DNA of 64,000 nucleotides from Nanobdellota archaeon. GTDB lineage: Archaea; Nanobdellota; Nanobdellia; Pacearchaeales; GW2011-AR1. The notes beneath the pieces were generated by a model that made no database searches, was not told the DNA's origin, and saw nothing but the letters and a program-made list of their open reading frames with translations. Location: assembly GCA_030698805.1 (NCBI GenBank), contig JAUYMA010000003.1, positions 12,167-76,166 of the forward strand, written 5' to 3'. Shown in pieces: positions 18,026 to 42,193 of the stretch. The number at the start of each line of letters is the position of its first letter. The first letter of the stretch is position 1. A program made the position numbers and the translations under genes.

Positions 18026-18038
18026 CTGCAATATTAGT

Positions 18039-19859: not shown

Positions 19860-20772
19860 CTTCTTTCGCTATAAGCAGTTCGCTGAATAAGGGACTTGTT
19901 CCTATCTGAATTAAACGGTAAATCTCTCTAATGTAAGAAAGTAAAACTGCCTCTTCTCCCCTTGCAGATTTTATAGCTTCTAGACATTTACCAAAATGAT
20001 ATTTCTCTTTTCCTGAATTTATCTTATGAATTGCATTCTCATCTTTTCTTAAATAAGCCTCGTAATAAAGCGAGAAATAATTCTGCAATTCTTTTACGAG
20101 ATTTTTTGTTTCTTTTCCACATTTAACTTTTTTACTGGCAGCGTGAAGATAAGTATAAGATATTGCATGCCCTATATGAGTTAAAAAAGTTAGCAATTCC
20201 CAAGCTAATGCAGGATTTCTTTCCTCCTGCTCTTTCGTTAATATACGCCTACAGAAAAGAACAAATTTATCATGCTGGTCTCTCAACTCAGTTATATCTT
20301 GGAGATGTTTAAACTCTCCTTTTTCAGTGTCTCTATTTAAGATTTCAATAGTCTCCTGGATGATTATGAAAAGTCTTCTTAGGAGCACATCATATTTTTG
20401 GTCTGTTGGCTCAGAGAGATTTTCCAGAGTGCATTTATTCGCGGTTCTATCAGTCAGCTCAAATCCTAGTAAAAGGGGTAAAGTTGCTTTAATTTCTTTA
20501 AATGACTTTTCATCCAGATTTTCTATGGTAATTGCATCAAATCCTCTTCTGTAAAGATGAGTTAAGAGTGCCCTTACATCTGATCTTGCCTCATTATCTA
20601 AGACAACTAAGGTCATCTTCTTTTTTAGCACTGCTGATTGAATAATTAAAGAAGTATCTTTCTCCTGCAACCGAATTTTATCTCCTTCTTTAAGGCCTTT
20701 TTTATCCACCCATGATTTAGGAAGATAAATAGTGTAACCTCCTCCCCCTTGTTTGATGAGTGTTCTTTCCAT
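19843..20772 (-). CDS. AbrB/SpoVT-domain plus PhoU-like regulator (module copy 1)
   Basis: N-terminus MERTLIKQGGGGYTIYLPKSWVDKKGLKEGDKIRL is an AbrB/SpoVT fold pattern. It is followed by a helical, PhoU-like body with the ...FCRRIL... motif shared by all three copies. The 3' end overlaps the kinase 3' end by 17 nt. Confidence 0.75.
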   Translation of the reverse strand: MERTLIKQGGGGYTIYLPKSWVDKKGLKEGDKIRLQEKDTSLIIQSAVLKKKMTLVVLDNEARSDVRALLTHLYRRGFDAITIENLDEKSFKEIKATLPLLLGFELTDRTANKCTLENLSEPTDQKYDVLLRRLFIIIQETIEILNRDTEKGEFKHLQDITELRDQHDKFVLFCRRILTKEQEERNPALAWELLTFLTHIGHAISYTYLHAASKKVKCGKETKNLVKELQNYFSLYYEAYLRKDENAIHKINSGKEKYHFGKCLEAIKSARGEEAVLLSYIREIYRLIQIGTSPLFSELLIAKEVKDLN

Positions 20773-22922: not shown

Positions 22923-23900
22923 ATGAAAAATTTAAATTTACTTTTAATTGGAGAAGAACCTTCAGAGAGGCCAATAGTAGAAAAAGGCCTTGGCCTCGAT
23001 GAAGTGCATATCTCTAGCTATGCACATGATAAAGCATTCAAATATGCTGAATTAATAATACAAAGAAAGGGAAGAAGTCTTGAAGTTGGAGGCTTTTTAA
23101 CCACGCCTAAAGAAGCAAGAGACCGAGTTGCCAGAGATGCATTTCTTGCCCGAGATCAAGAAGTTACTTCTGTTTCTTATATATTGAGTCCTCAAGATGT
23201 TAAAAAAGCTAAACAAGAGCTTGACAAAATGGGACAGAGAATTGTGGGGTGGTGGCATAGTCACGGACGTATGAGAACTTTCCACTCTGATATTGATGAT
23301 AAAAATCAGATGGTCTTGCTTAATCAAATAGCGCCTTCTAATTATTCTGTAATAAGACAAGAAGAAACAAGAGGTTTACAAAGCAGGTTAGAAGGGAACT
23401 CTCTTATTTTCTGGGATCCTGCTAATCCAAGAAAAGTATACTCTCTAGATATCAAGAATGATAATCCTGAGCTTATAGCTAAGCGATTACGCATAACTAA
23501 AGAGGAGCAGATTGGATTCGCTTATAGCTTTGTTGTTAATCATCATAGATGGTTAAATTTTAGAGTACCTTATTGTGAAATAGCCACTAGGGAAGTGTGT
23601 TCTGGATGCTTAAATGATAATGCTAAAAGTAAGACAACTGGATACAAAATATTTGATGAAGGAGATTTTGAAATTGATGAAGAACAACTTATCGTAGAAA
23701 TAGATGAACGAGTACATTTAGCTGGGACAAGGAGGAAGTATTTCTTGCCTGAAGATTTTGAAAGGGAAAGGGCTGCAGGCACGCTGACGAAACCTGAATT
23801 TGCCTTAGGCACCTCTCCAATTTACCCTGCTCATGCAAGCAATCTTGATTTGACTCAGTCTCCACCTATAAATTATGCTAAGAGGTATTGGAAAAAATGA
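22923..23900 (+). CDS. JAMM/MPN+ metalloprotease (JAB domain)
   Basis: Complete JAMM signature: E in LEVGGFL, then H-x-H-x7-S-x2-D in WWHSHGRMRTFHSDID (23256-23297). The C-terminal extension has a Cys cluster, CEIATREVCSGC. Confidence 0.85.
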   Translation: MKNLNLLLIGEEPSERPIVEKGLGLDEVHISSYAHDKAFKYAELIIQRKGRSLEVGGFLTTPKEARDRVARDAFLARDQEVTSVSYILSPQDVKKAKQELDKMGQRIVGWWHSHGRMRTFHSDIDDKNQMVLLNQIAPSNYSVIRQEETRGLQSRLEGNSLIFWDPANPRKVYSLDIKNDNPELIAKRLRITKEEQIGFAYSFVVNHHRWLNFRVPYCEIATREVCSGCLNDNAKSKTTGYKIFDEGDFEIDEEQLIVEIDERVHLAGTRRKYFLPEDFERERAAGTLTKPEFALGTSPIYPAHASNLDLTQSPPINYAKRYWKK

Positions 23901-25306
23901 TAGAAAAAAATATTAGATATGATCGACAAGAAAGAATCCAAAATTGGGACCAAAGTAAATTAACCAAAGCGAGAGCAATACTTATTGGCGGAGCACAATT
24001 AACTCATTTTACTGCGGCATCGCTAGCGGCTCTTGGAATAGGAAATATAGAAGTGTATATTCCTCAAGGAGAAAAAACACAGGGATTCCTGACACCTTTA
24101 GGGGGAGAACCTAGAGATCTTGAAAGCAAATTAAGGCAAATGAATCCCTCCTCCTCTATAAAAGTAGGAACATTTGATACAGAGCTTAACTTGACTCAGA
24201 ACCGCCCAGATATATTGCTTGATCTTACTAACTCGCCAGAGATGAAAGATAAATCAATTGGAATTTCTTCTTTGTATGGTATTCCAATAATCTCTGCTTC
24301 GAATGGTAAAACTGGAGGAGCATTCTACTTAGGGACACTGGGAGAGATACCTGCTAGTGCACGACTAGAAGATTATGCAGGTTCTACCCAAGGGGGATTT
24401 TCAAGTGAGATTATGGCTGGAATGATAACTGAAGAAGTAAGAAAAAGTTTAATGCCTTTAAGAGAAGGAGAAAAACCAGTTAAAAGCTTGGCATATCAGG
24501 GCACTGCTGAAAGAAGATTTGCTAGAGAAGGAGATTTTGAAGCAGACCCTTATGAAAACATTTCAGAAAAAAGAATATTAATCGTTGGTGCAGGAGCATT
24601 AGGCAACTTTACAGCACTGGGGGCTGCTCTTGAAGGAATAGGAAATATAGATATATTAGACTTTGATGAGGTTGAGGCCCACAACCTTAATAGACAAATA
24701 CTATTTTACGATGCAGTTGGAAGAAAGAAAGCAGAGGCTTTGGCCGCAAAGGTAAGAGAAATTAATCCTCATGCAGAGGTAAGAAGTCTTGTAGGAAAGC
24801 TTGATGAGAATACTATTTATTTTGAGAAAAATAGACCTGACGTGATATTAGATTGTGTGGATAATTTTGCGACAAGAGCCCTAATTAATTACTTTGCCGT
24901 GAGATATGGCATACCTCTCGTTTCAGGAGGCACAAATTCTCAATCTGGACAAGTTGTAGTATACGAACCTGGAATGAGTTCGTGCCTTCAATGTAAATTA
25001 GATGTGGAGAAAACTCTTGCCCTCTCATTACAAGGAAGCAAATGTACAAACTCTCCTGATCCTAGCGTAATTATGACAAACGAAATCGTTGGGGGTATGA
25101 TGATTGGAGAGACACTCAAAGTCATGGACAAAGGATATGGCACGCCTGTCTCCAAGATTCTTAAATATGATTCGAATGTCCCTATCCGGGGCGGATTAAT
25201 TGGAGCAGGAGACCCCTGCGATTGTACGCGCGGAGATATGAAGAAGTGGTTGACAGGAGTCAAAGAGAGACTTGAAGATATTTCGGAGGCATCTCATGGC
25301 GTTTAG
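23897..25306 (+). CDS. E1-like activating enzyme with two fused ThiF/MoeB-type domains
   Basis: First half has RYDRQ plus a degenerate nucleotide loop (ILIGGAQLT). Second half is a canonical adenylation domain: ILIVGAGALGN, DFDEVEAHNLNRQILF and DCVDNFATR, with paired Cys motifs CLQC and CDC. ATG 23897 forms an ATGA overlap with the JAB stop; the track start at 23888 is TTG. Confidence 0.85.
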   Translation: MIEKNIRYDRQERIQNWDQSKLTKARAILIGGAQLTHFTAASLAALGIGNIEVYIPQGEKTQGFLTPLGGEPRDLESKLRQMNPSSSIKVGTFDTELNLTQNRPDILLDLTNSPEMKDKSIGISSLYGIPIISASNGKTGGAFYLGTLGEIPASARLEDYAGSTQGGFSSEIMAGMITEEVRKSLMPLREGEKPVKSLAYQGTAERRFAREGDFEADPYENISEKRILIVGAGALGNFTALGAALEGIGNIDILDFDEVEAHNLNRQILFYDAVGRKKAEALAAKVREINPHAEVRSLVGKLDENTIYFEKNRPDVILDCVDNFATRALINYFAVRYGIPLVSGGTNSQSGQVVVYEPGMSSCLQCKLDVEKTLALSLQGSKCTNSPDPSVIMTNEIVGGMMIGETLKVMDKGYGTPVSKILKYDSNVPIRGGLIGAGDPCDCTRGDMKKWLTGVKERLEDISEASHGV

Positions 25307-29420: not shown

Positions 29421-30467
29421 ATGGACTTATATCAATTAATTACTCAGGCAGTTGGAGGATTCTCGGTTGGTTTAGGGGCCTCTTTGAATTACAAAAGATA
29501 TAATGAAGCAGTGAATAGCATGGAATATGCAAAATTAATTGATGAATCTAGATTGGGAAAAGAATTAGAAAGCAAGGGTTTGACTGAGGAAAAATTAAAA
29601 AATTGGCATGAAGCAAATCGCAGACTTAATATCTTATCTCCTTATCTTTATGGCTTTGGATTTTCAGTAGCCACTAGCATAGCCTCGTTTGCCCAATGGA
29701 ATTTTGGTGAAAATGTTTTGATTTCAGTACCATCTGCTTACCTCGGCTTTGCTGCTGGAGTCTTGACTCATAGAATTAAAAATATGAAATTTAGGGAGGA
29801 GATGCAAATAGCCCAAGAGATGAAGAGAAATCCAGATTCTATTGAAGCTCTTCTTACTGAAAATGAAAGATCAACTATCAGGACTTCCTTGGAACAAATT
29901 GAGCAAGGAATGTTTGAAGGAAGCTTTAACCCTCTTACTTCAAAGCCGCTTTTCCTAATCTACTCTACTGTAATCGAGAGAAATAAAGTTTACACGCCTT
30001 TAGTTACCCAATGGAGCTTAAAGGAAATTGAAAAAGCAATATCTTCCGGCAAATTACAAAAAGATCTTAAAGATTTCTATGAAACTCCTCTTCCCATTGG
30101 GGGGAGCATTGCTACTGCCTCCCTTAACTCTCTTGTAATAGAAAGGCCGACTCGTGTCTTTGTAAGGGAAGGGGATAAGTTTTATTCTCTAGATGTTTCC
30201 TGGAAGAATATTCGAATTATAGAACAAGATGAGACTAAAGAAGTAAGCATATGTGGCACTGCTCCGGATCTAAGAAAGATCCAAGAAGAATCTTGGAATC
30301 CTGATTACAAAACCCTGGCGCATATTGTTGAAGAGCATGGCAAAGATGCAAATAGAGTTATAATGCTCGCTCCTGAGAATACTTCTCTGGGACTTCAGGG
30401 AGCGATATTAACACAAAATTATGTGGAAGAACTAGTAAGAAGACTGAAGAATGAGAAAAAGAACTAA
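29421..30467 (+). CDS. membrane protein with C-terminal soluble domain, last gene of the Ubl operon
   Basis: ATG 29421 is 1 nt after the P4 stop, with AAGGAGG upstream. Hydrophobic segments are LITQAVGGFSVGLGASL, YLYGFGFSVATSIASFAQW and LISVPSAYLGFAAGVLT, followed by about 220 soluble residues. No family recognised. Confidence 0.5.
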   Translation: MDLYQLITQAVGGFSVGLGASLNYKRYNEAVNSMEYAKLIDESRLGKELESKGLTEEKLKNWHEANRRLNILSPYLYGFGFSVATSIASFAQWNFGENVLISVPSAYLGFAAGVLTHRIKNMKFREEMQIAQEMKRNPDSIEALLTENERSTIRTSLEQIEQGMFEGSFNPLTSKPLFLIYSTVIERNKVYTPLVTQWSLKEIEKAISSGKLQKDLKDFYETPLPIGGSIATASLNSLVIERPTRVFVREGDKFYSLDVSWKNIRIIEQDETKEVSICGTAPDLRKIQEESWNPDYKTLAHIVEEHGKDANRVIMLAPENTSLGLQGAILTQNYVEELVRRLKNEKKN

Positions 30468-31174
30468 TTATTCTTAGGGCCTAGCAAAACAAAAATATAA
30501 TCTCCATAAGTACCTTCTTCGCTATGCTCGGGCCAGGTTTTTGTAATTCCATGATGATCAAAGTGTCTTTTTACTTTAGGCAAGCGTTTTCCCAGAGAAG
30601 TCTTAAATTCATCCTTAAGAACATCATTAGCAATAATGTCTGTGCATGCTTCTATTACCTCATCTGGAGCGCCGTTTCTTATTGTGGCTGCTAAGTATTC
30701 ATATCCTAATTTGGCAGCACCCAGTTTTCTTTCAAGCTCATTAGAATAATCGTCAATATAACAATCAGAAAGAATAGCGGTTCCGGAAGGATTTAACCAG
30801 GAAGCCATGTTATGGATTAATTCTCCTTGTCTTTCATAAGGAAGATGATGTAAAGCTCCTGTACATGTTATAACATCAAATTTTCTTTGTGGTTTCCAAG
30901 TTAGAACATCTCCAACTTCAAAATGGGCTTGAGGATATTTTTTCATCCCGTGCTCGACATAACTTTGTTCAATATCCACACCATGCAAAGATAAGTCTGG
31001 TCTTTGCTGTAATAATTGGCCTTGCAAGTATCCTGGGCCGCACATTAAATCAAGAACCTTCGCACTTTTCTGGGCTACTGCACAAAGTATTTGAACAACT
31101 GTCTTGATTGATTCTCTATAAGGCCAATAAACTAATTCTTGTTCGTATGTTTCTGGAGGAGGTAAAGGTTTCAT
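30464..31174 (-). CDS. class I SAM-dependent methyltransferase (left arm, M2)
   Basis: Motif I VLDLMCGPGYL, then HGVDIE and FDVITCTGALHHLP. Confidence 0.7.
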   Translation of the reverse strand: MKPLPPPETYEQELVYWPYRESIKTVVQILCAVAQKSAKVLDLMCGPGYLQGQLLQQRPDLSLHGVDIEQSYVEHGMKKYPQAHFEVGDVLTWKPQRKFDVITCTGALHHLPYERQGELIHNMASWLNPSGTAILSDCYIDDYSNELERKLGAAKLGYEYLAATIRNGAPDEVIEACTDIIANDVLKDEFKTSLGKRLPKVKRHFDHHGITKTWPEHSEEGTYGDYIFVLLGPKNN

Positions 31175-31175
31175 T

Positions 31176-31904
31176 TTATTTTTTATAAGCTATAACCAGT
31201 GCATCTCTTTCGATGCGCTTGACAATTCTAGGCTTGGAAAATCCTGCATCTCTCAAATCTTGCAGAGCTTCGTTTTCTCTCATGACAAAGGGTTCCTGAT
31301 GATCTTGGACTTCATGCTCAATGATTGCTTCGGCCAATCCTGCAGGCCATTTATTTTTCTGACTTATTGATCTATATCTGTCAACTGCAACTTGCAATGA
31401 ACGTCTCTCTTTTCTTGGATCATCTGATACGAATTTGTCCATGCATAAATAAAGTGCCCCAGGAAACATGGCTTCATATCCTGTCTTTAGAATCTTCCTG
31501 CGCTCTTCTCTTGGAAAATTATGCAAAGCCCAGGCTGAAGCGAGCACATCCATTTGTCCAGCACATAGTTCTAGACAGTCCAGGACTTTAGTTCTTATAG
31601 GAAATAAACGGCCTTGAGAAATATAAGATTTAAAATTAGTAGCTAACTCCTCTTGCATTCTGTCGCTAGGATCTATGGCTATCACTTTGGATCTCTGCTC
31701 GTATTCTAAGATATACTTTGTGGCCTCTCCTCTACCGCTTCCTATTTCAACAACGTTTATTGCCTTACCCTTATGTTTTCTGAAGTGAGTAGCAATTGTC
31801 TTGCCCAATCTTCTATGCATCTCTCCACTATGCGGCCAAGCCTGAAGAAGAGTATCGTAATTATCTACTAAAATTCCCGAATATCGTGGTTCTCGAGTTG
31901 CCAT
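31176..31904 (-). CDS. class I SAM-dependent methyltransferase (left arm, M1)
   Basis: Motif I VVEIGSGRGEAT, then VIAIDPS and DVLASAWALHNF. Confidence 0.7.
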   Translation of the reverse strand: MATREPRYSGILVDNYDTLLQAWPHSGEMHRRLGKTIATHFRKHKGKAINVVEIGSGRGEATKYILEYEQRSKVIAIDPSDRMQEELATNFKSYISQGRLFPIRTKVLDCLELCAGQMDVLASAWALHNFPREERRKILKTGYEAMFPGALYLCMDKFVSDDPRKERRSLQVAVDRYRSISQKNKWPAGLAEAIIEHEVQDHQEPFVMRENEALQDLRDAGFSKPRIVKRIERDALVIAYKK

Positions 31905-31906
31905 AT

Positions 31907-32689
31907 TTACCAGCTCTTTCTAAGAGAAAGATCAAAGGTGGCAGCATGATCTTTGAAAACTCCATGCATATCATCAATTGCTTTTTGGGCTCTGACTCCT
32001 GCATTTAATGAATATCCCCTTCCTAGATCTGCCCCCACATTTAGTCCAATAGCGGCAACTGAAAATCCAGAATCAGGTACGAAGTATCTATTATTGTAGG
32101 AGAGTCTGCTTTCCACTCCAAGAGTTAATCTATCTGTTAATGGAAAATTCTTGCTTAGCTTTAATTGGAATAATTGACCTTCGTGGCTTATTTCTCCATA
32201 AGACTGAACAGCTGTAAAAGTGACATCTACTGGCAACTTCTTTGTTTGCACACTTACTCCCAGAGTATATGCATCTTCCAATTCAGTATTTGGAAATGTG
32301 AACCAGTAAAATTCAGGCCTTATCCTGAAGTTCTCTGTTTCAAGATTGAGAGTTAGAGAGTTGTCTAATTCGTTCAATCCATTCTTCATATCATAATTAC
32401 CCCAGAGATTGTAAGATAGTTTTCCTATATTAAATCCCATATCACTTTGAATGACTGGTCCTTCTGATAAGGTAAAACCATATGTTCCCATATATCTTGA
32501 ATGCCAACTTGTGCCTACAGAGAAATTGCTAGGTTTTAGAGAGAAGGTTTCTTTTTCTACTGACACATCTGCAGCTCCTGCTGAAGGACTTTCTCCATCA
32601 TCTGCCTTTGTGCTTACTGTAGTAGTTGCAAGAATACCTGCAAGTCCTAACGATGCTATCTTTCCTATTGTTCTTGTTGTGTTTTTCAT
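31907..32689 (-). CDS. secreted beta-rich protein, outer-membrane beta-barrel-like (left arm)
   Basis: Start trimmed to ATG 32689 (MKNTTRTIGKIASLGLAGILATTTVSTKADD is a signal peptide). Amphipathic alternating beta-strand patterns throughout. The C-terminus ...ATFDLSLRKSW ends in an aromatic residue. Confidence 0.5.
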   Translation of the reverse strand: MKNTTRTIGKIASLGLAGILATTTVSTKADDGESPSAGAADVSVEKETFSLKPSNFSVGTSWHSRYMGTYGFTLSEGPVIQSDMGFNIGKLSYNLWGNYDMKNGLNELDNSLTLNLETENFRIRPEFYWFTFPNTELEDAYTLGVSVQTKKLPVDVTFTAVQSYGEISHEGQLFQLKLSKNFPLTDRLTLGVESRLSYNNRYFVPDSGFSVAAIGLNVGADLGRGYSLNAGVRAQKAIDDMHGVFKDHAATFDLSLRKSW

Positions 32690-32760
32690 TTCGTGTTTTC
32701 CTTTTGTAACCACTTTATGATTACAATAATATAATGAAAAATTAGCTATTAATATTTTAT

Positions 32761-32818: not shown

Positions 32819-33730
32819 ATGCAAAGAAAGCTTATTGGCCAGGGTTTAGGAGGAATTACTGTTCACTTACCTAAAAGATGGATCGATGCTCATCACTTGA
32901 AGAAAGGAAATGAGATAGACATAGAAGATTCTGAAGGAAAATTGATAATATCCCCTAAAAAGATAAATAAAGATAAAAAAGAAACTTCTATCAGGCTCTC
33001 AGGATTAGAAGAATCTCTTATTAGAACACTTATTGCAAATACTTACAGGTTAGGATACGACTCTATCAAGGTAGATTTTGAAAATGAAAAACAATTTCAA
33101 ATATTAAATGAGATAATTCAAAAAAGATTAATTGGTTTTGAGATAATCAAAAAAGATTCCGGAAGCTGCATTGTAGAAAATGTGACTGAACCCGAAGAAG
33201 ATCAGTTTGGTAATATTATGCAGAAGCTCTTTCTTAATATAGATACATTGCTGGAAAATATTAATCAACTATGCTCCTCGGATAAAGCTCAGATTAGCGA
33301 GAGTATTGATGAACTAGATGATAGGATACTGAAATATGACAATTTCTGCAGGAGGATATTATTAAGAAGGAGATTTGATGAAAAATCTGCTTTGCATTTA
33401 GCTTTCTTGACTATGATTATACATGGAGAAAGAGAATTATATTATCTTTCTAAGTCTATTGGCAAAGGTATGAAGTGCTCTTCAGAAACTCTTAAGATTA
33501 TAGGTGGTATTGCTCAAATTAACAAACTTATTCAAGAAGCCTATAATAAGAAAAAATTTGATAATCTAGCAGATATTAATGCTATTGGAAGGAGAATTAT
33601 CTATAAAGAAGGCTATAAATTAATGGAAAATAAAAAAGGAAAGGAGCTTATTGTGATACATCATCTCTTAGCATGCACCAGGGATTTTTACCAAGCAGTC
33701 AGCCCATTGAGCGGATTATTGTTCACGTGA
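32819..33730 (+). CDS. AbrB/SpoVT-domain plus PhoU-like regulator (module copy 2)
   Basis: MQRKLIGQGLGGITVHLPKRWIDAHHLKKGNEIDI N-terminus and a helical body with YDNFCRRILLR. The 3' end overlaps the kinase 3' end by 15 nt. Confidence 0.75.
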   Translation: MQRKLIGQGLGGITVHLPKRWIDAHHLKKGNEIDIEDSEGKLIISPKKINKDKKETSIRLSGLEESLIRTLIANTYRLGYDSIKVDFENEKQFQILNEIIQKRLIGFEIIKKDSGSCIVENVTEPEEDQFGNIMQKLFLNIDTLLENINQLCSSDKAQISESIDELDDRILKYDNFCRRILLRRRFDEKSALHLAFLTMIIHGERELYYLSKSIGKGMKCSSETLKIIGGIAQINKLIQEAYNKKKFDNLADINAIGRRIIYKEGYKLMENKKGKELIVIHHLLACTRDFYQAVSPLSGLLFT

Positions 33731-35887
33731 CCTATATTCTATGACCTTCTCTGCGAAATCCTGAGAAGGCACTGAAATATTCCAATCAAGCAGTTTATAT
33801 CCATTATTGTTTGTTCCGTGATATATTGGATAGGCGGTAGAGAAGTTAGTCTCCCCCGTCTTATTGTTTATCAAGTCGATAAGCAGAGTATATTCTCCAT
33901 GGGGTGTTTCATTGCCTGGAAGGGGAATGTAATGAATATACTTATTAGTTTCAGAGAATCCTAATTCAGGTATTGAATAAGTTGCAGATAAATCTCCTTT
34001 TTCATTTAAATGATATGTTCTTTCTTCTTCGAAAATTCCATTAGTATGAATATATGTACTTACCCCAACATCATTGTCCCCATATGAAAACCTAAGCCCT
34101 GTGATTCGTGCATGTCTGTTAGGTATATCTCCTACTACTATGGGAATTCTTTGTTGCGCTAAGATATTGTTTGTATTGCAATTTATTATAAATTCTCCCT
34201 CATCTTTAGGGTTTGCAGCTCTTGGTGGGAGAGAATCGACAAGGAGAGTATAATTTCCAGAAGGGAAATTAGTGGGGATTTTTATTGTGGTTGAAGAAGG
34301 ATACCCTGATCCAAAAGGCAAGTTTTTAGGAGGAACTAACTTAGGATCTCTAGAAGATGTATTGAATATCTCTGGAGAGATATTGGTATTGCCTTCTACT
34401 GCAACTTCGATAGGATAAATTAAATAAGGAACCCTAAATTGTTTTGATTGAAGAGGTTTCTGAATAATATTTGCGAATACTCTCACCTCATCTCCTTGTT
34501 GTAGATGCAATATTGATGTTTTTTCTGGATATCTTTGACCTGGAGCAACTGCCCAAGTACTCAATTCATAAAGAGCTGAGGGCTGGAGATTATTATTACC
34601 GTCCCAATCCGAATTAATCTCAATTGTTCTTTCTTTATCGTTCAATTGCTTTTCTGCATCTTTAAGTTTGGCATTATCTAAATGAGCATAGTAGCCAAGC
34701 GCAGAGATTGCTAAAGCACTTGCGGCTGCTGCAACAGTATTTCTTGGGGAAGAAGGTTTTTCCCAAAATGATGGACTAGAGGCTTCCTCAAATTTTTCTA
34801 GAAGTTTACCTAAATTATTTATGCGACTCGAACCTAAAGTCAATCCATGATAAAGGAGGTCTCTAAATTTTCTTGCATTTTTTGGTAGCTTACTCAATGC
34901 CTTATTTAGTTGTGATTCATATTGATTGACATCGAGGTGCTCTGGACTATAAGGGTCAACTATGAGGAAATCTTTTCCTAAAAGCATCATACCAAACATT
35001 TTCGTTAGAGAGTAAACTTCAGAAGCCTCATCATAATGTGAGGGCTTACCTGTTCTTGAACTCATTAGTCTAGGATCGCAAGTGGTTCTTCCTGGGCAGG
35101 AATGAGTATAGCTATCCACTACTTCTCCGTCGACTCCTGCTGCAGAAGTATCAGTTATCACTATCTCTCCTAATCTGTCTTCCAAAGAAACTAAAACATT
35201 AGAAGGTTTTAAGTCTCTGTGAAGATGGCCTGTCTTCTGCCTGAATCTCTGAGCCGAACTAAACATTTGCTCTGCAAATGAAGAAGCAATTGGCAAAGGA
35301 ACCTTCTCCTTTTGGTCTAATATGTCTTGAAGAGAAACTGATGGAATAAAAGTTTCAGCATAAGCATAGCTTCCTGCATATCCGACATCGGATAGTTCCT
35401 TGCAGGCTATCGGGGCTGAAAATCCTGGCATTCGCTGAAGATTTAGCGCCATATTTGCTTCTCTCCTAGCATTATAGCCCTTCCTAAAATGTTTAAGCAT
35501 AGCTGGAGAAGGATTATTCAGCATAATCTCTCCCTCGGGTTTATCCATCTTAACTGCAAGGCGAAGATTATTGCCTGAACCATCAAATACCGATTCTGCT
35601 ACAAATACTGTTTTAATGTTCCCCTCCGCACAATAGGCCCAATTAGTGTAATCTGGGAATTTTTTCTTTAGAGCATCTACCTTTGTCTTTAATTCTAAGG
35701 AAAGATCATTATAAGGAGTAATTCTAGGCCCTTGTATTTCTTGGAGAAATTCCTTGAGAGTCATGGTCCTTTGAGGCTTCTCAAATAAAGATTTTATGCC
35801 TCTCCATACATACCCAATATAATCTGGTCCTGGAAATTGACTTTGGCCCTTTCTTACCTTAACAAGTGCTACCTCTAATTCAGGCAT
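33716..35887 (-). CDS. membrane-spanning Hanks-type Ser/Thr protein kinase (module copy 2)
   Basis: LAVKM, HLHRDLKPSNVLV and ITDTSAAG. One TM (VAAAASALAISALGYYAHL) and a roughly 330-aa C-terminal ectodomain homologous to that of copy 3. Start set at ATG 35887 (8-nt overlap ATGCCTGA); the track start is 35911. Confidence 0.8.
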   Translation of the reverse strand: MPELEVALVKVRKGQSQFPGPDYIGYVWRGIKSLFEKPQRTMTLKEFLQEIQGPRITPYNDLSLELKTKVDALKKKFPDYTNWAYCAEGNIKTVFVAESVFDGSGNNLRLAVKMDKPEGEIMLNNPSPAMLKHFRKGYNARREANMALNLQRMPGFSAPIACKELSDVGYAGSYAYAETFIPSVSLQDILDQKEKVPLPIASSFAEQMFSSAQRFRQKTGHLHRDLKPSNVLVSLEDRLGEIVITDTSAAGVDGEVVDSYTHSCPGRTTCDPRLMSSRTGKPSHYDEASEVYSLTKMFGMMLLGKDFLIVDPYSPEHLDVNQYESQLNKALSKLPKNARKFRDLLYHGLTLGSSRINNLGKLLEKFEEASSPSFWEKPSSPRNTVAAAASALAISALGYYAHLDNAKLKDAEKQLNDKERTIEINSDWDGNNNLQPSALYELSTWAVAPGQRYPEKTSILHLQQGDEVRVFANIIQKPLQSKQFRVPYLIYPIEVAVEGNTNISPEIFNTSSRDPKLVPPKNLPFGSGYPSSTTIKIPTNFPSGNYTLLVDSLPPRAANPKDEGEFIINCNTNNILAQQRIPIVVGDIPNRHARITGLRFSYGDNDVGVSTYIHTNGIFEEERTYHLNEKGDLSATYSIPELGFSETNKYIHYIPLPGNETPHGEYTLLIDLINNKTGETNFSTAYPIYHGTNNNGYKLLDWNISVPSQDFAEKVIEYRSREQ

Positions 35888-36047
35888 TTTCTTTCTCCTC
35901 CAGATTTTCATGAATGAGATCTATCTTCAATTGAGTAAGCATGCCTGGCTTAATTATTCCTTCAAGATCTTTTGGAATTACAATTACTGATTGCCTGCCG
36001 TGTTTTGCAATTCTTTTAGTTATAATAATTGATTTTGGGCCTTTCAT
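35880..36047 (-). CDS. small AbrB/SpoVT/MazE-like protein (module copy 2)
   Basis: Hand-translated 55-aa ORF absent from the track (MKGPKSIIITKRIAKHGRQSVIVIPKDLEGIIKPGMLTQLKIDLIHENLEEKENA). Confidence 0.6.
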   Translation of the reverse strand: MKGPKSIIITKRIAKHGRQSVIVIPKDLEGIIKPGMLTQLKIDLIHENLEEKENA

Positions 36048-36049
36048 TT

Positions 36050-36068
36050 GATACATCAGAGATGTATC
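36050..36068. promoter_or_regulatory. perfect palindrome gATACATc-aga-gATGTATc (ATACAT-N5-ATGTAT), left operator
   Basis: 8-bp arms with a 3-nt spacer, 3 nt upstream of the minus-strand small-ORF ATG (36047). Confidence 0.55.
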
Positions 36069-36082
36069 AGGTATATTTAAAT

Positions 36083-36123
36083 GTAACTATAAAGTAATAA
36101 CAAATCGTAAGATTTATATATGC
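36083..36123 (+). promoter_or_regulatory. conserved 41-nt promoter element (copy B) with TATA box
   Basis: gtaactataaagtaataacaaatcgtaagatttatatatgc, matching 18039-18079 at 38 of 41 positions. TTTATATAT is at 36113-36121. Confidence 0.6.
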
Positions 36124-36153: not shown

Positions 36154-36312
36154 ATGGAAAGCAAAAAATTCGTTATAACGAAAAAAGTCGCCAAGCATGG
36201 AAGCCAGGCCATCATAGTTATCCCTAGAATTCTTGAATCTGAGCTTAAACCTGGCACTATTGCTCAAGTGACTATTGAAATTATAGAAAGCCAAGGAGGA
36301 CAAAATGAGTGA
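36154..36312 (+). CDS. small AbrB/SpoVT/MazE-like protein (module copy 3)
   Basis: Hand-translated 52-aa ORF absent from the track (MESKKFVITKKVAKHGSQAIIVIPRILESELKPGTIAQVTIEIIESQGGQNE). Confidence 0.6.
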   Translation: MESKKFVITKKVAKHGSQAIIVIPRILESELKPGTIAQVTIEIIESQGGQNE

Positions 36313-38434
36313 GACTGGGGTTTCTACAAGAGAGGAAATAATAAAAATAGCCAGAGGCGTTTTGCCCCGAGGTAAATATCATGATTTGAAGTCTTTTGAC
36401 GAAGAAGAAGGCGCCCAACGAATTTGTTTGACTGCAAATAGAGGTATACCTCCTCATACTCAAGAGGTTTTTATTAAAATTGATAAGGAGCCTGTCGGAG
36501 AAGCAGCCTCTAGATTAAAAGAAGGGGGATATACCACACATCAAGAAGTAAAAACTCTTCTAGAAATTCCAGTGGATGAGGCTATTCATAATCATTTGAG
36601 CCCGGTAGTAGATTTCTATATGAGTGCATCTACTGGCTCTACAATATCTGTAGAACCCAGATTTAAAGGTGCCAAGTCTTTGAAGAGAAGGGTGGCAGAG
36701 CAAGGCCCGTTAGACACTAAAGAATTTGAAGATTTTATGCGCCAATATGTTCAGGCCAATGTATATTTAATTAAAAATAGAAGAATGGTGCATCGAGACC
36801 AGCACCCTAAGAATATTTTGATAGGGCCTTCTATAAATGGAAAGGGATTGGAAGCAAGACTTACTGATATGACTACTGCGACAACTTTGGATTCTATTGA
36901 CCAAAGCAGTTCTACAACTTGGGGGGCCAGATCGATAAGGCACTTTGCATATGGCAATTCTTCATTTGAGAAGAGAATCGGAGCAGAACAAGCTGAGATA
37001 TATTCTATTGGTATGAATGCTATCTTCTCTTTGACCGGCATGTTCCCGGTTTATTATGATAATCTTAATGGAACTGGGATTAGCGCATTTACTGGTGAAA
37101 ATCTTCTAAATAAAGATGGAACAGTCAACATAGAGAAACATAATGAGGCTATAGAACAAGCCCTCTCTAAATTCCCGAAGAAAGCTAGAAAGCACACTGG
37201 ATGGATAAAGAAATGTGTAAATGGAGATGTGGATAAGCAGTACAGGTCTATTGATAGTCTTGTTAGAGATTTTGAAAGAACAGTTACCCCTACCCTAATT
37301 GATAGAATGAGAAGTATTCCTAAGAAAGTTAAAGCAGGATTAGCTGCAGGTCTTGCCGCTTTGACAATAGGGGGCGGTGCGCTTACCTATGAGATTATTG
37401 AAAAAAATAAGGAACATTCTGTCCAACTTGCAGAAGCAAGTAGATACAAAATTACTGCAGAATGGAATGGACTTAACCCTCAGATAAGAAATAATTTATT
37501 TGAAATGAAGGCAAGCTTATACGGCAAAGATTATAGTAAGGGATATCCTAGAAATAAATTCTTAAGAGTTGAAAGAGGACAAGAGCTTAGCGGACATATA
37601 GAATGCAAAGAATATCCTCGTCAGCAAAATTCTAGATTAGGAGATTTCTATTCCTATTCGGGCCAGGCTTATATAGAGGGTTATCCCCTTGAAGAAGGAA
37701 TCTCTGATACTTTTGGAGTGACCCCCATACCTTCAAATGAAGCTGGCGCTTACGCAGAAGGGGCTTACTTTGGAGGAGACTTTAGGATAAAGATACCTAA
37801 AGATCTAAGAGATGGTGTATATAGCTTGGCTATTGCCACTTATGCTCCCACTGAAGAAGTAATAGCTAAAAAAGAATCTGAAAATAGAAGGACTGCAACT
37901 TCTGTTAATATAAAATTTACCGCCCCTGGAAAGGCCTTAACATTAAAAACTATTCCACTCATAGTTGGAGATCCTAAACCTGCTTTAGCACAGCACGAAT
38001 TTAATATTAACAGCTTTGATGATAATATCTCCCTTGATGAAGTACAAGGAAGAGATGAATTCGGAGGAGGGCTCTCACCTCGAAGCAGTTATTTCGCTTC
38101 CACCTCTTTAGTTAATGATGAAAAGATTTCCATTTTAGGGAGAGGGATAAATAGAAGTACCTTAGGGATAAAATTACCTGAAGGAACAAATTATTTGGAG
38201 GGAGTTGCTGAAGTGGGAGTTTATTCCCTAGAGTCTAAGCAAATAATTTTCTACACCGCATTTCCAATTAGGAGAACTGAATATCCCTCACAATTGCAAT
38301 CCCCTCTTTATTTCTGGGGATTAGGCCTGCCTGGGAAAGATTTTCCTGAAAAGTTGATAGAACATAGACAGAATTTAGAGATAAAAGCTGCAGAAGCCTT
38401 TGCTAGAACTAATTATTCATTACCTAAAGAATAA
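36305..38434 (+). CDS. membrane-spanning kinase-like protein with divergent catalytic motifs (module copy 3)
   Basis: VFIKI, MVHRDQHPKNILI (HRD-x4-N kept, Lys replaced by His) and RLTDMTTA; no clear Gly-rich loop. One TM (AGLAAGLAALTIGGGALTY) and an ectodomain homologous to copy 2. 8-nt overlap ATGAGTGA with the small ORF. Confidence 0.75.
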   Translation: MSETGVSTREEIIKIARGVLPRGKYHDLKSFDEEEGAQRICLTANRGIPPHTQEVFIKIDKEPVGEAASRLKEGGYTTHQEVKTLLEIPVDEAIHNHLSPVVDFYMSASTGSTISVEPRFKGAKSLKRRVAEQGPLDTKEFEDFMRQYVQANVYLIKNRRMVHRDQHPKNILIGPSINGKGLEARLTDMTTATTLDSIDQSSSTTWGARSIRHFAYGNSSFEKRIGAEQAEIYSIGMNAIFSLTGMFPVYYDNLNGTGISAFTGENLLNKDGTVNIEKHNEAIEQALSKFPKKARKHTGWIKKCVNGDVDKQYRSIDSLVRDFERTVTPTLIDRMRSIPKKVKAGLAAGLAALTIGGGALTYEIIEKNKEHSVQLAEASRYKITAEWNGLNPQIRNNLFEMKASLYGKDYSKGYPRNKFLRVERGQELSGHIECKEYPRQQNSRLGDFYSYSGQAYIEGYPLEEGISDTFGVTPIPSNEAGAYAEGAYFGGDFRIKIPKDLRDGVYSLAIATYAPTEEVIAKKESENRRTATSVNIKFTAPGKALTLKTIPLIVGDPKPALAQHEFNINSFDDNISLDEVQGRDEFGGGLSPRSSYFASTSLVNDEKISILGRGINRSTLGIKLPEGTNYLEGVAEVGVYSLESKQIIFYTAFPIRRTEYPSQLQSPLYFWGLGLPGKDFPEKLIEHRQNLEIKAAEAFARTNYSLPKE

Positions 38435-39297
38435 ACTAGCAAATAATTATTGAGTATTATTATTTTGTTTAACAATTGCATTAAAAGAGCATCTGAAACG
38501 CTTTTTCCTTTTATTTCTTTCTTGAGTGTTTCATAAAGTCTTGCATTTTTTACTAATTTCTCCTTATCAAAAGAAAAAATAATCTCTCGGAAATTTGCCA
38601 GAAGCTCTCTACTTCCTCTTATTGTTTCTATTTGAGACTTTGAAGACTTTTCTTTTTCTGCTTCTCCTGCAATTGCCTTGTATGTGTCCCCTATCTGTTC
38701 AAGAGAATTAATAATTGCATATATCTGATTTGTTCTCGAGTAGATAGGATAACCTTTTTTATTTAGAACTCTTAGGCAGAAATGACTTAATCTATTTACA
38801 CTGGTATCTGCCTCTATTACCTGATCCATTTTTTGTTTTTTTTCACAGGCTTGCACAAGTTCCTCTGCAATGGAATCTAGAATAAGAAAGATTCTCTTGA
38901 TGAGCTCATCAATCTCTTGTTTTTCACATCCCGTGACATCTTTTAAGATAAAGCTTGAACTTGTTTGTTTTACAATCTCAAAGCCAAGAAGCTCTGGCAG
39001 AACGCGCTTATGGAAATCCTTAACTTCACTGTAATCTTTAAACTTTACCTCTATTTCGTCCAATCCTTTTTCATATAATGCCAATAATGATCTGTTAATT
39101 AATGGAGAAAGGTCAATTACATCTATAGAGGTCCTGCTTGCTTTTTCTTTGACAGATAATGGAGAAATTTTCAGCAAATCTTCCTCCTCGATCATATTTA
39201 CTTCGTCTCCTTTATCGAGCTTATATTTTTGCACCCATTTTGCAGGCAGACTTATCATTAAAGTTGCTGCGCCTTGCTTTACTAACTTCCTCTGCAT
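38413..39297 (-). CDS. AbrB/SpoVT-domain plus PhoU-like regulator (module copy 3)
   Basis: MQRKLVKQGAATLMISLPAKWVQKYKLDKGDEVNM N-terminus and a helical body with LSHFCLRVLNK. The 3' end overlaps the kinase 3' end by 22 nt. Confidence 0.75.
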   Translation of the reverse strand: MQRKLVKQGAATLMISLPAKWVQKYKLDKGDEVNMIEEEDLLKISPLSVKEKASRTSIDVIDLSPLINRSLLALYEKGLDEIEVKFKDYSEVKDFHKRVLPELLGFEIVKQTSSSFILKDVTGCEKQEIDELIKRIFLILDSIAEELVQACEKKQKMDQVIEADTSVNRLSHFCLRVLNKKGYPIYSRTNQIYAIINSLEQIGDTYKAIAGEAEKEKSSKSQIETIRGSRELLANFREIIFSFDKEKLVKNARLYETLKKEIKGKSVSDALLMQLLNKIIILNNYLLVYSLGNE

Positions 39298-39430
39298 CTC
39301 TTTTTCAGCCTTTCATAATATATAAGCTTTTTCTTTTTTATATATACTTTATACTAATATATATAGTTTAATAACAAGGTTTAAACCTATCTTTTCTTCA
39401 TATTATTAACTAAATAGTAGTTACAATAAA

Positions 39431-40693
39431 ATGAAAGAAAAAATAATAAAGGGTCTGACAGGATTGATCGCAGCTGCAGCTCTTACAAATAGTGTTGAAG
39501 CTCAGAATGGTTCAGTATGGAATAATATTCAAGAAGCGGGCCTGGATGGAAGAGCAAAAGTTGAATATAATGGTAATTTTGATACTTCTCACACTTTGAG
39601 AGAAACTATTGCTTTTGGAAGAGAAGGAGTTTACGATGGCAGAACCTCAGTAAAGGGGCAGTTTTTTGATATTGGACGTTTGACACTTGCCCAATATCCG
39701 GATCAGGCCAGATCTCAGGAAATGTTTGGCCTCAGACTAGAACCTCAGAAGACTTTTGGACTGACTAATAATTTAATTCCTGCAAGCACGATTGTGTTTG
39801 GAAGCGTTACTCATAATGAAAATGATAGTGTAGAGGCCATAGCTTCTGAAGCTAAATGGTCATTAGACAAAAAGACTTTTTATTTAAGGGGAGAATTGCA
39901 GAATGGAAATCAATCTCTTTCCCACTTAGGGGGAACTTTTAGATACGATGCTGGGAACTGGGCTTTCCAGTTAGGAGAAGAGTATGTTTCTCAAAATTCT
40001 GGAGATTTCAATCAGATATTAGTAAATGCCTCCATAATGCCGACTCAAAATGACTTTTATGCGCTGACCTTTGCACATCAGAATTTACCAGATAATACTG
40101 ATAACAACAGAGTGAGATTCACAACTGCCCATTTCGGGAAAGATGCTTCCTGGGGACATAGAAGTTTTTTTGAATATTCATTTAATCCAGAGAAAGATCA
40201 AGAAATTATTTCTGGTCAGCTTGCCATAGTTCCTTTTGGACCCTCAACTTATGGAAAAATAGCTGCAAGACTTTTTACTGAAGATGTTTGGGAAAATGAT
40301 AGCATATTCAAGGTTATGAGAACTCCTTTCGGACTTTTTACTGAAGGAGTACCTCACTTTGATAGAATTGTTGGCGGGCAAGGCATAGAAGGATTAGGTT
40401 TTGTTGTAAATGCCTCTTCTGCAAGAACGGGGGATCAAAATTCTAAGAATATCTCCGGGCAGGTTCACTATATTGGGCGACTGCCTGGAAGCCTTTTGGG
40501 TCAGAATGAATATGGAGTTTACGCCGGTTCCAGCTACATAGATAATAATGGAAACTCTGCAACTTACCTCGATACTGGAACTACTTTGAGATTCGGAAAA
40601 CATTTCTCATTAAGGGCCGGATTTGGCATACCTATTCAGACTGAAACTAAACAGAATCTTCAGGGAGTTTTAGAAGCTGAATTTAAATTTTAA
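39431..40693 (+). CDS. secreted beta-rich protein, outer-membrane beta-barrel-like (right arm)
   Basis: Signal peptide MKEKIIKGLTGLIAAAALTNSVEAQ. Long run of alternating-polarity strands rich in G, Y, F, N and T. C-terminus ...LQGVLEAEFKF, with terminal Phe and alternating hydrophobics. Confidence 0.5.
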   Translation: MKEKIIKGLTGLIAAAALTNSVEAQNGSVWNNIQEAGLDGRAKVEYNGNFDTSHTLRETIAFGREGVYDGRTSVKGQFFDIGRLTLAQYPDQARSQEMFGLRLEPQKTFGLTNNLIPASTIVFGSVTHNENDSVEAIASEAKWSLDKKTFYLRGELQNGNQSLSHLGGTFRYDAGNWAFQLGEEYVSQNSGDFNQILVNASIMPTQNDFYALTFAHQNLPDNTDNNRVRFTTAHFGKDASWGHRSFFEYSFNPEKDQEIISGQLAIVPFGPSTYGKIAARLFTEDVWENDSIFKVMRTPFGLFTEGVPHFDRIVGGQGIEGLGFVVNASSARTGDQNSKNISGQVHYIGRLPGSLLGQNEYGVYAGSSYIDNNGNSATYLDTGTTLRFGKHFSLRAGFGIPIQTETKQNLQGVLEAEFKF

Positions 40694-40694: not shown

Positions 40695-41435
40695 ATGGAA
40701 GGATACGAGACACAAGCCGGATTCTGGGATAAAACTGCACCAAGGGTAATGGGGGATTTAATCGGAAGGCCAAGTGCTGTTGAGTTAATGGGGAAAGGAA
40801 GGGTTAGGAGAGAAAAAATACTTGAAGCTGGATGCGGTACTGGATATACTGCTAGAATGCTTGTAGGAGAAGAGGCGATAGTTAGTGGATGTGATTCCTC
40901 TCGTGAAATGCTTGAGAAAGCAATTAAAGAAGAAAAAGATGCTCCTGGAATAGAATACAAGCTTGCAAATATAATAAGCACTGGATATGAAGGCGATAGA
41001 TTTTATGGAGTAATGTCTATAGGCGTTTTGATACATAATAATCCAAGTTTTGTCAATTTAGCATATCGTGAAGCATTCAGAGTATTAAAGCCTCAAGGAA
41101 CAATGGTTGTTTCAGTTACACACCCTTACTTATTCACTTCAGGAAGTCCTTCTATGAAGAAAGGAAAGAATTGGGTTAAGCATAGATTCCTTGGTAAAGA
41201 GAATGCAGGAAGTCGCGTGTTTGAAGAAGAATACTATGATTTAAATGGAAATAAATTTGTTTCTGAAGTGTGGGATCATTCAATTGGATTTTATTTAAAC
41301 GGGGCTGTTCAAGCAGGATTTAAACTTGAGGAAATTAGAGAACCTAAAGTAGAAGAAAAACATCTACTTCATCCTTCTTGGGGAAAAGAATACGGGTATC
41401 CTGCTTTCTTACAATTTAGGATGGTGAAAAAATGA
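40695..41435 (+). CDS. class I SAM-dependent methyltransferase (right arm, M3)
   Basis: Motif I ILEAGCGTGYTA, then VSGCDSS and FYGVMSIGVLIH. Starts 1 nt after the beta-rich gene. Confidence 0.7.
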   Translation: MEGYETQAGFWDKTAPRVMGDLIGRPSAVELMGKGRVRREKILEAGCGTGYTARMLVGEEAIVSGCDSSREMLEKAIKEEKDAPGIEYKLANIISTGYEGDRFYGVMSIGVLIHNNPSFVNLAYREAFRVLKPQGTMVVSVTHPYLFTSGSPSMKKGKNWVKHRFLGKENAGSRVFEEEYYDLNGNKFVSEVWDHSIGFYLNGAVQAGFKLEEIREPKVEEKHLLHPSWGKEYGYPAFLQFRMVKK

Positions 41436-42193
41436 ACTCTCGTGAAGGACTAAACCTTGCAGTGAGAATACTCGAAGATGAAGAAATAATAACAGGCGAC
41501 GAAGCAAACAAATATGCGGACAGACGAGATAATAGGGCATTGACTACTCGCTTAGTTGCCTTAGACATTTTAGAAAAGATTCCTATTAAAAAAGTTACTG
41601 GCAGAGTTTTGGAGGTTTGCTGTGGAGCAGGAGATTTAGCGAATAAATTATACCGTTTAACTGATAACCCAAATATTCGTGCTACTGATGGGAGTCCTGG
41701 TCTTATTGAAACTGCAAAAGTAAAATATCCTCATATTAATTTCTCAGTTGCGAATGTGCACAACCATCTCGGAAGAGGAAAGAATGATCTTGTTATCTGC
41801 AAAGATGCTTTTCACCATTTTAGTGATCCTCAAAAGAGTCTTGGAGAATTGCTAGATTTAGTTTCTCCCGGCGGATATTTGTATATCTTTGACCTTAATA
41901 GAGACTGTTCTCCAAATCATTTCCAAAGAAGAGAACAAGTCATTGTAGATCCTAATGAGAAAAGAAGATTTATACGATCTTTAAACGCCTCTTTGACTGC
42001 TGTAGAGTTCGCTGAACTTCTAAGGAAGCCTGAGATTTATGAAATAATTTCTTCAGCATTTATACATTACCCTTTTAGTTTCTCTGATGAAGCTCTGGCA
42101 AAGAGTCAAGATTTAATTGCAAAAGATGAAACTAGTGAATACAAATTGAATACCCTATCTGCAGTTTATGTCTTGCAAAGGAGGAAAAGATGA
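41432..42193 (+). CDS. class I SAM-dependent methyltransferase (right arm, M4)
   Basis: Motif I VLEVCCGAGDLA, then IRATDGS and DLVICKDAFHHFS (compare GALHHLP in M2). ATGA overlap with M3. Confidence 0.7.
   Translation: MNSREGLNLAVRILEDEEIITGDEANKYADRRDNRALTTRLVALDILEKIPIKKVTGRVLEVCCGAGDLANKLYRLTDNPNIRATDGSPGLIETAKVKYPHINFSVANVHNHLGRGKNDLVICKDAFHHFSDPQKSLGELLDLVSPGGYLYIFDLNRDCSPNHFQRREQVIVDPNEKRRFIRSLNASLTAVEFAELLRKPEIYEIISSAFIHYPFSFSDEALAKSQDLIAKDETSEYKLNTLSAVYVLQRRKR

Follow-up and report, generated by a model that had tools for sequence, protein, structure and literature searches.

Beta-barrels of the outer membrane, with the C-terminal signal for their insertion, count as a hallmark of bacteria with two membranes and of organelles descended from such bacteria. 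In these bacteria the C-terminal aromatic motif of a barrel is the beta-signal that is read by the machinery for beta-barrel assembly (BAM). The described structures closest to the proteins considered here fall into two groups: the 12-strand channels KdgM/NanC, Tsx, PcoB, COG4313 and FapF; and the large monomeric barrels of the OccK/OpdK family (18 strands), the TonB-dependent receptors (22 strands), the PapC/FimD ushers (24 strands), AlgE and PelB. Archaea generally lack outer membranes. Here we describe a stretch of 64,000 nucleotides (the window) from a Nanobdellota archaeon (GenBank assembly GCA_030698805.1, contig JAUYMA010000003.1, positions 12,167 to 76,166 of the forward strand), which encodes two exported proteins, ProtA and ProtB, both predicted to fold as barrels of the bacterial outer-membrane type. 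The pair was unexpected because such archaea are not known for an outer membrane or for machinery that inserts barrels. On balance we judge that ProtA and ProtB are probably membrane-inserted channels of this type and form a co-regulated pair, a claim that leaves the choice of membrane aside.

Two predicted barrels of the outer-membrane type

The gene of ProtA (31907..32689, minus strand) encodes 260 residues, and its assignment as an exported protein with a predicted 12-strand barrel is based on its open reading frame (ORF), an AlphaFold2 (AF2) model and Foldseek comparisons. The start is taken to be the ATG giving MKNTTRTIGK..., rather than a TTG upstream at 32824, because homologues begin at the same point. 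A signal peptide (about residues 1-29) is followed by a disordered linker up to about residue 50, and the protein ends in ...FDLSLRKSW. The signal peptides of ProtA (MKNTTRTIGKIASLGLAGILATTTVSTKA/DD) and ProtB (MKEKIIKGLTGLIAAAALTNSVEA/QN) are of Sec type, made up of a basic and a hydrophobic stretch and a cleavage site resembling Ala-X-Ala, as judged by reading the sequence and by a heuristic scan that flags both proteins; a signal-peptide-like region is also present in 132 of 147 representatives of the ProtA family. The AF2 model of ProtA has a predicted local distance difference test score (pLDDT) of 77 overall and of about 90 from residue 50 onward, and consists of 12 long antiparallel strands. 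All 50 listed Foldseek matches in the Protein Data Bank (PDB) are outer-membrane-type barrels, and those that superpose best are 12-strand channels: the COG4313 channel (4rl8, E 8.5e-7), PcoB, NanC, Tsx, FapF and KdgM (4pr7; TMt 0.77, root-mean-square deviation 3.8 A), and the PDB entries of 12-strand outer-membrane barrels among the matches include 7pge, 2wjq and 1tlw. E values for the closest structures range from 8.5e-7 to 6e-5 at sequence identities of merely 7-13%; the likeness is one of fold class only, and no substrate can therefore be inferred from it. Matches in a library of viral structures were mainly annotated as outer-membrane proteins.

ProtB (39431..40693, plus strand; 420 residues) was assigned by the same three means as an exported protein with a predicted barrel of about 20 strands. 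Its AF2 model, with a mean pLDDT of 68 and a predicted template-modelling score (pTM) of 0.66, places 20 strands in hairpins that follow one upon another. Every one of the 50 listed PDB matches is a bacterial barrel of outer-membrane type with 16-26 strands, among them Cir, PirA, PapC, the OccK/OpdK family, TamA, OprB and AlgE, with E values of 5e-6 to 2e-4 and modest TM-scores of 0.3-0.46. From the large barrels named above ProtB differs in its number of strands and in having no plug, POTRA or usher domain. A long loop (residues 268-321), modelled with low confidence and conserved in sequence, could constrict the pore, as in porins.

Two general features of these proteins accord with the models. 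The alternation of hydrophobic and polar residues along the strands exceeds that of within-strand shuffles (z=4.4 for ProtA, z=2.6 for ProtB), and mature ProtA and ProtB are both acidic and free of cysteine. An initial annotation, made from the DNA letters alone, had described signal peptides, alternating strands and hallmarks of bacterial outer-membrane barrels in both proteins, and had proposed prediction with AlphaFold as a check; the N-termini that it quoted are correct, the alternation lies above chance, and the models yield barrels of 12 and about 20 strands rather than another fold, with outer-membrane proteins in all 50 listed PDB matches of each.

Two other kinds of beta-barrel protein were considered. 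In beta-barrel pore-forming toxins, a soluble monomer supplies one hairpin or two of a barrel built by an oligomer, whereas a complete barrel from a single chain is predicted for ProtA and for ProtB. Insertases of the Omp85/BamA/TamA type consist of POTRA domains followed by a 16-strand Bac_surface_Ag barrel. ProtB was rejected as such an insertase, as it has no Pfam match, about 20 strands and no POTRA domains: only a short predicted helix (residues 28-35) stands between its signal peptide and first strand, and the TamA and BamA barrels are merely among many equally scored matches.

Relatives of ProtA and ProtB

An exhaustive phmmer search of 1.84 billion representatives with ProtA returned 36 clusters at E<=1e-10 and 146 representatives at E<=1e-3, and a word-indexed search at E<=1e-3 found two ProtA and six ProtB proteins. 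Homologues of both are thus few, unlike the widespread archaeal S-layer-associated family that the initial annotation had named as the outcome speaking against barrels. A role as S-layer or surface-anchored archaeal proteins was also rejected on the grounds that neither protein has an Ig-like or beta-sandwich Pfam match or a C-terminal transmembrane segment, and that homologues are few. Sequence searches detected no PDB chain for ProtA with its relative P0002, for the ProtB family or for a 90-member ProtA family, and a tblastn search of 72,556 plasmids with ProtA gave no match.

Of the wider ProtA family, 90 members were compared with family models: 20 hit TIGR02001 ('TorF family putative porin'; E 5.6e-11 at best), ten hit Gcw_chp (PF09694), which Pfam describes as 'Bacterial protein of unknown function', and four hit MipA (PF06629). 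Since relatives match these models while ProtA itself falls below their thresholds, ProtA appears from these comparisons to be a distant archaeal branch of the bacterial TorF/Gcw_chp/MipA-like group of small porins, an outgroup rather than a member. With TorF/Gcw_chp and MipA/OmpV it shares a length of about 230-260 residues, a signal peptide, 12 predicted strands and a C-terminal ...hydrophobic-x-hydrophobic-x-x-x-F motif. It is set apart, together with its close archaeal relatives, by scores below the curated thresholds and by a near-invariant lysine third from the end, and furthermore by being an archaeal gene with AbrB-PhoU and kinase regulators and methyltransferases as neighbours. Horizontal acquisition, which had been suggested for both proteins, is plausible for ProtA, given this overlap with bacterial porin families. 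For ProtB and its relatives there is no significant Pfam, NCBIfam or PDB sequence match; with no detectable bacterial relative, the suggestion of horizontal acquisition is not supported for it. ProtB belongs to an orphan family that is confined to these archaea and would, as modelled, have the fold of an outer-membrane barrel.

The C-terminal aromatic signal

The last residue is phenylalanine, tryptophan or tyrosine in 101 of 147 ProtA family sequences, against a background of 11.7% (binomial p ~7e-59), and leucine, valine, isoleucine or phenylalanine occupies positions 5 and 7 from the end in almost every case. The archaeal subgroup departs from the usual pattern in position 3, where a near-invariant lysine takes the place of an aromatic or hydrophobic residue. 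ProtA itself has tryptophan at position 1, lysine at 3 and leucine at 5 and 7, and was counted as carrying the beta-signal. ProtB ends in ...LEAEFKF, with phenylalanine, phenylalanine, alanine and leucine at positions 1, 3, 5 and 7 from the end. Its terminal phenylalanine is invariant in a seven-sequence alignment, and three more distant members end in tryptophan, phenylalanine and phenylalanine, so that all ten ProtB-type proteins collected have a terminal aromatic residue. Both C-termini had been quoted correctly in the initial annotation, which gave them in the opposite order to the signal peptides. Conservation of the motif points to selection on insertion or on closure of the barrel, and does not reveal the machinery used.

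The archaeal host

The contig is archaeal, as had been assumed: ORF 4706-7117 is the aEF-2 equivalog, which scores 905 bits on TIGR00490 where the cutoff is 738, and ORF 10802-12082 is EF-1alpha, which also passes its family cutoff. The genome is that of a small groundwater archaeon of the DPANN group, of Woesearchaeota/Nanoarchaeota type. The aEF-2 ORF was listed with a TTG start, and its family match begins at residue 82, from which the true start is probably further downstream. Guanine-plus-cytosine (GC) content is even along the window (0.34-0.40, mean about 0.37), with no GC island at the ProtA/ProtB locus, which suggests that any gene transfer is ancient. Archaeal names, known only for those relatives whose sources give names, are attached to close relatives of the barrels: 'Nanoarchaeota archaeon' (P0154), 'archaeon' (P0019) and 'Candidatus Woesearchaeota archaeon' (L011, a contig of a metagenome-assembled genome, MAG).

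A conserved two-barrel module with methyltransferases

Each barrel gene is followed by two genes for class I S-adenosylmethionine (SAM) methyltransferases, with gaps of -4 to +2 nucleotides, so that the two operons proposed in the initial annotation are borne out. Downstream of ProtA by 2 nucleotides lies MT_A1 (31176..31904, minus strand, 242 residues; Pfam Methyltransf_25/12/11), which has only generic sub-threshold NCBIfam matches and is 26% identical to L008_MT248, a protein of one of the homologous loci (given here as L numbers). MT_A2 (30464..31174, minus strand, 236 residues; assigned by Pfam) is the last gene of that operon, and its orthologues adjoin barrel genes in L008 (61% identity) and L021 (54%). 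After ProtB come MT_B1 (40695..41435, plus strand, 246 residues) and MT_B2 (41432..42193, plus strand, 253 residues), both likewise assigned by Pfam; MT_B1 is 36% identical to L021_MT268, a member of a combined ProtA-ProtB operon, and MT_B2 is 26% identical to MT_A2.

The description of ProtA and ProtB as paired copies did not hold. They were rejected as copies of each other (BLASTP E=0.056, hhalign probability 9%), have no detectable similarity, and differ in predicted size, with 12 against about 20 strands. It is the surrounding cassette that is duplicated, with identities of 31% between the regulators Reg_A and Reg_B, 22% between the kinases Kin_A and Kin_B, and 26% between MT_A2 and MT_B2. 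The two cassettes are mirrored about 36.1 kb and, judged by these identities, are old paralogues with respect to the regulator, the kinase and one methyltransferase. On the whole, the observation made in the initial annotation is partly confirmed and its interpretation partly supported: predicted barrels and archaeal host stand, whereas the copies do not.

The two barrel families are adjacent in four other archaeal lineages and lie within 10 kb of each other in the window and in L008. In L001/L002, a ProtB-like gene (394 residues, 24% identity) overlaps the start of a ProtA-like gene (249 residues, 54%); in L017/L018, a kinase and an AbrB-PhoU regulator are followed by a ProtB-like (400 residues) and then a ProtA-like gene (244 residues, 42%); in L019/L020, the ProtB-like P0007 (36%) is directly followed by a ProtA-like gene (260 residues, 24%); and in L021, a ProtA-like gene (278 residues, 43%) and the ProtB-like P0008 (35%) are followed by an ORF of 106 residues and then by four methyltransferases. 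One of these last, MT250, is the orthologue of MT_A2 mentioned above, and one operon in L021 therefore unites what the window splits in two. One of the four consecutive methyltransferases of this locus (3360-6319) is PrmA-like, of the protein-lysine methyltransferase type. The 108-kb contig L008 ('Nanoarchaeota archaeon') carries two mirrored cassettes as in the window, with a ProtA-like (38%) and a ProtB-like (27%) gene. A profile scan of genome contigs with the ProtB alignment returned one locus, in a Woesearchaeota MAG, and a scan of metagenomes returned four, two of them new.

Linkage to methyltransferases is seen in the window, in L004-L007, in L008 and in L021. By gene order, ProtA and ProtB form a conserved module of two predicted barrels that travels with two to four cytoplasmic class I SAM methyltransferases. 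The NCBIfam matches of the latter are generic and below threshold (BioC, Tam, UbiE, CpaM, PmtA), hence no substrate can be assigned; with no signal peptides, these enzymes should act in the cytoplasm. They might modify the barrel precursors, a lipid or a small molecule that is transported.

Some other neighbours were noted. Small proteins of 139-153 residues downstream of ProtA homologues (L001, L008, L013) were rejected as part of the module, as they are not conserved between loci, and a 540-residue protein upstream of P0020 proved not to be ProtB-like. A secreted protein of 414 residues in the window (50968-52212) combines Ig-like domains (FixG_C/DUF7490) with a hydrophobic anchor at its C-terminus. 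Proteins with 55-57% identity to it are encoded a few kb from barrel genes in L001 and L012, and it is probably a surface protein of the ordinary archaeal kind. In L008, the region downstream of the ProtB-like gene (13317-17280) encodes several small proteins with weak FG-GAP repeat matches and an ACP_syn_III (FabH-like) gene, which recalls the bacterial-type fatty-acid genes reported in Woesearchaeota (PMC8204110).

Regulators, receptor kinases and a candidate operator

Between the two barrel operons lie two sets of regulatory genes. Reg_A (32819..33730, plus strand), divergent from ProtA, is of AbrB/SpoVT type with a PhoU-like part (Pfam MazE_antitoxin/AbrB fold, E=1e-7), and its position is conserved in L003, L008 and L018. 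The Ser/Thr kinase Kin_A (33716..35911, minus strand) matches Pfam Pkinase below the cutoff, crosses the membrane once (residues 393-411), ends in an outside domain of about 320 residues and is a paralogue of Kin_B. It is preceded by a small AbrB-like ORF of 58 residues (35880..36056, minus strand), which is conserved in small ORFs that precede kinases in L004, L008 and L012. On the other side, a small AbrB-like ORF of 52 residues (36154..36312, plus strand) precedes the Ser/Thr kinase Kin_B (36305..38434, plus strand; one transmembrane segment, residues 342-360), whose position is conserved in L004-L007, L012 and L023. The AbrB and PhoU regulator Reg_B (38413..39297, minus strand; MazE_antitoxin E=7e-7, PhoU E=0.002) is divergent from ProtB, and its position is conserved as well. 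In both kinases, a single transmembrane segment thus lies centrally, and the outside domain at the C-terminus comprises 320-350 residues. The order of small ORF, kinase, regulator and barrel is kept in L004-L007, L008, L012 and L023, and L018 carries kinase, regulator and barrels.

A 21-bp palindrome, TGTAAY-NN-TAWAG-NN-RTTACA, was found by pattern search at four sites in the window, where 0.11 are expected. One copy, TGTAATCATAAAGTGGTTACA (32705..32725), lies 15 bp upstream of the ProtA start codon, and a second, TGTAACTATAAAGTAATAACA (36082..36102), between the divergent Kin_A and Kin_B modules; the others stand upstream of a third module described below (18038-18058) and of ORF 62250 (62227-62247). 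A degenerate version read from the sequence, ATTAACTAAATAGTAGTTACA (39405..39425), lies 5 bp upstream of the ProtB start; it matches the copy at 18038 in 16 of 21 positions and is weaker evidence than the other sites. The palindrome also occurs upstream of barrel genes in L001, L008, L012 and L018. From its distribution we infer that this element is a candidate operator on which the AbrB-type regulators act, and that both barrel operons may be regulated together.

The third module (18098-20772) consists of a small AbrB-like ORF, the membrane-spanning kinase Kin_C (18231-19859) and a divergent AbrB regulator (19843-20772). Next come genes for three proteins, an AAA ATPase (20987-22468), one with a JAB domain (22923-23900) and one of ThiF/E1-like type (23888-25306), which together look like a ubiquitin-like modification operon under the same type of switch. 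As the module stands before this operon, the switch appears to be a general one in the genome and not specific to barrels. Just downstream of the fourth palindrome, the window encodes a coiled-coil protein of 328 residues (62250-63236), followed by an ORF that runs off the window end (63233-64000) and whose N-terminus, MKFGKIAALGGLAAILSGC..., resembles a lipoprotein signal with a lipobox cysteine.

Elsewhere in the window, 3445-4821 (minus strand) encodes a Csm6-type protein with HEPN and 6H domains, of CRISPR (clustered regularly interspaced short palindromic repeats) type III signalling; the scans, none of which used an array-finding tool, brought up neither a CRISPR array nor any other cas gene. 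An Rfam scan of the window gave no useful match.

Possible mechanism and choice of membrane

If ProtA and ProtB are inserted channels, a simple course of events can be proposed. Both would be exported by Sec with cleavage of the signal peptide, and would take up their fold within a layer of lipid that lies outside the cytoplasmic membrane, where the conserved aromatic C-terminal strand may close the barrel or serve in recognition during insertion. They would act as passive channels, ProtA narrow, ProtB wider and gated by its loop, and their transcription would be set by the kinase/AbrB-PhoU module through the shared 21-bp palindrome.

Several results weigh against channels of this bacterial type. 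The AF2 models were each built on an alignment of seven sequences, and 83 residues of ProtB have a pLDDT below 50. ProtA reaches only 18.1 bits (E=0.003) over part of the Pfam MipA/OmpV profile, against a gathering threshold of 24.2, and has no NCBIfam match at E<=0.001 and no match to Gcw_chp, so that it remains below the TorF and Gcw_chp thresholds; the bacterial origin of its distant relatives is, moreover, deduced from family models and not from taxon labels, the names of their clusters being uninformative. BAM had been assumed in the initial annotation to be absent, and no genes for Omp85/BamA, POTRA, Lpt, Lol or periplasmic chaperone proteins were present among the scanned proteins of the 64-kb window, and the full-text literature searched holds no report of an outer membrane in Woesearchaeota.

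As to the membrane, our slight and tentative preference is for the archaeon's own envelope, in an outer layer of lipid, because the genes look resident and vertically conserved and have ordinary Sec signals, and because the lipobox-like ORF 63233-64000 lies directly downstream of the ORF with the fourth palindrome. A second outer layer occurs in Ignicoccus, Altiarchaeum and ARMAN (cited in PMC8871954). Since double-membrane archaea are known, an outer compartment in an archaeon is not without precedent, although these lineages differ from that of the present host. The outer-membrane pore protein of Ignicoccus is small and helical and not a barrel of bacterial type.

Insertion into the membrane of a partner, such as the outer or inner membrane of a Gram-negative host, is nearly as likely as the archaeon's own envelope, which still leaves it rather doubtful. 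The barrels would then be exported as weapons or feeding devices, with channels yielding metabolites to a small-genome archaeon and with contact inducing expression through the receptor kinases. This reading follows published arguments for attachment and prey, according to which small-genome Woesearchaeota/Pacearchaeota are proposed to be episymbionts or predators of bacteria and encode large lytic murein transglycosylase proteins (PMC8204110, PMC9723730), together with the precedent of the Bdellovibrio outer-membrane protein PopA, reported to enter prey membranes (PMC12228718). PopA resembles ProtA and ProtB as an outer-membrane-type barrel that a small cell, predatory or symbiotic, may use on the membrane of another cell, and a possible distant relative of it has been noted in Altiarchaeales (PMC12228718); it differs in forming an oligomeric, lipid-trapping assembly, and the analogy is one of function only, homology to ProtA or ProtB having been neither tested nor seen. 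The placement of the barrel genes under a receptor kinase with an outside domain, and the fairly fast divergence between lineages (24-54% identity), would also suit encounters with a partner. Yet the same type of kinase/AbrB-PhoU module stands at the AAA/JAB/ThiF operon, which argues that the regulation is not specific to host contact, and no host is known. It is established, furthermore, that insertion from outside into a lipopolysaccharide leaflet is unfavourable and that BAM acts from the periplasmic side. The conserved C-terminal signal and ordinary Sec signal peptides fit resident envelope proteins better.

That both proteins are exported but not inserted, as soluble or S-layer-associated beta-rich proteins that bind lipids or other hydrophobic ligands and whose likeness to outer-membrane barrels is a retained or convergent feature of the fold only, is quite improbable. 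Such a role would agree with the general lack of outer membranes in archaea, with the absence of an identified insertase among the scanned proteins of the window and with the only moderately confident model of ProtB. It is made unlikely by the hydrophobic outer face of the barrels, as a single-chain barrel of 12 or 20 strands with such a face is not expected to be soluble; besides, the structural neighbours listed are all integral outer-membrane proteins, no S-layer or Ig-like family was matched in Pfam or NCBIfam, and the terminal aromatic residue is kept across lineages. Lastly, bacterial contamination or a chimeric assembly, of which outer-membrane-like genes in archaeal metagenome bins are in general experience often suspected, is extremely improbable and already contradicted, since the genes lie mid-contig, 25 kb from those of aEF-2 and EF-1alpha, at uniform GC, with flanking AbrB-PhoU regulators and kinases that recur elsewhere on the contig, while homologous contigs (L004 and L024) encode ribosomal protein S6e, and since one gene order recurs in assemblies made independently (ENA, JGI, Logan and NCBI), which excludes both.

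Significance

Barrels of this fold class are known; the novelty lies in their archaeal host, in an orphan family of large barrels, and in two barrels being linked to methyltransferases, a kinase and AbrB-PhoU regulators. No description of outer-membrane-type barrels in Woesearchaeota or DPANN was present in the full-text literature searched, and the text of a survey of DPANN protein families (PMC8204110) contains neither 'outer membrane' nor 'porin'. We put at about even chances the broader proposition that a Woesearchaeota-type DPANN clade uses genuine bacterial-type barrel channels, either in an outer membrane of its own or in the envelope of a bacterial partner. If true, these would be the first functional barrels of outer-membrane type in Archaea; there would be an undiscovered archaeal route of barrel insertion, or a hijacking of the host's BAM; and the methyltransferases and the kinase/AbrB-PhoU switch would be new parts of the system.

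The finding defines an orphan family of large barrels and a compact regulon, in which a receptor kinase and AbrB-PhoU regulators are combined with a 21-bp palindrome. It raises the questions of whether some DPANN archaea have a second lipid layer, of how a barrel would be inserted without known BAM components, and of whether these archaea come into physical contact with Gram-negative bacteria, as has been proposed from their murein-degrading enzymes (PMC8204110).

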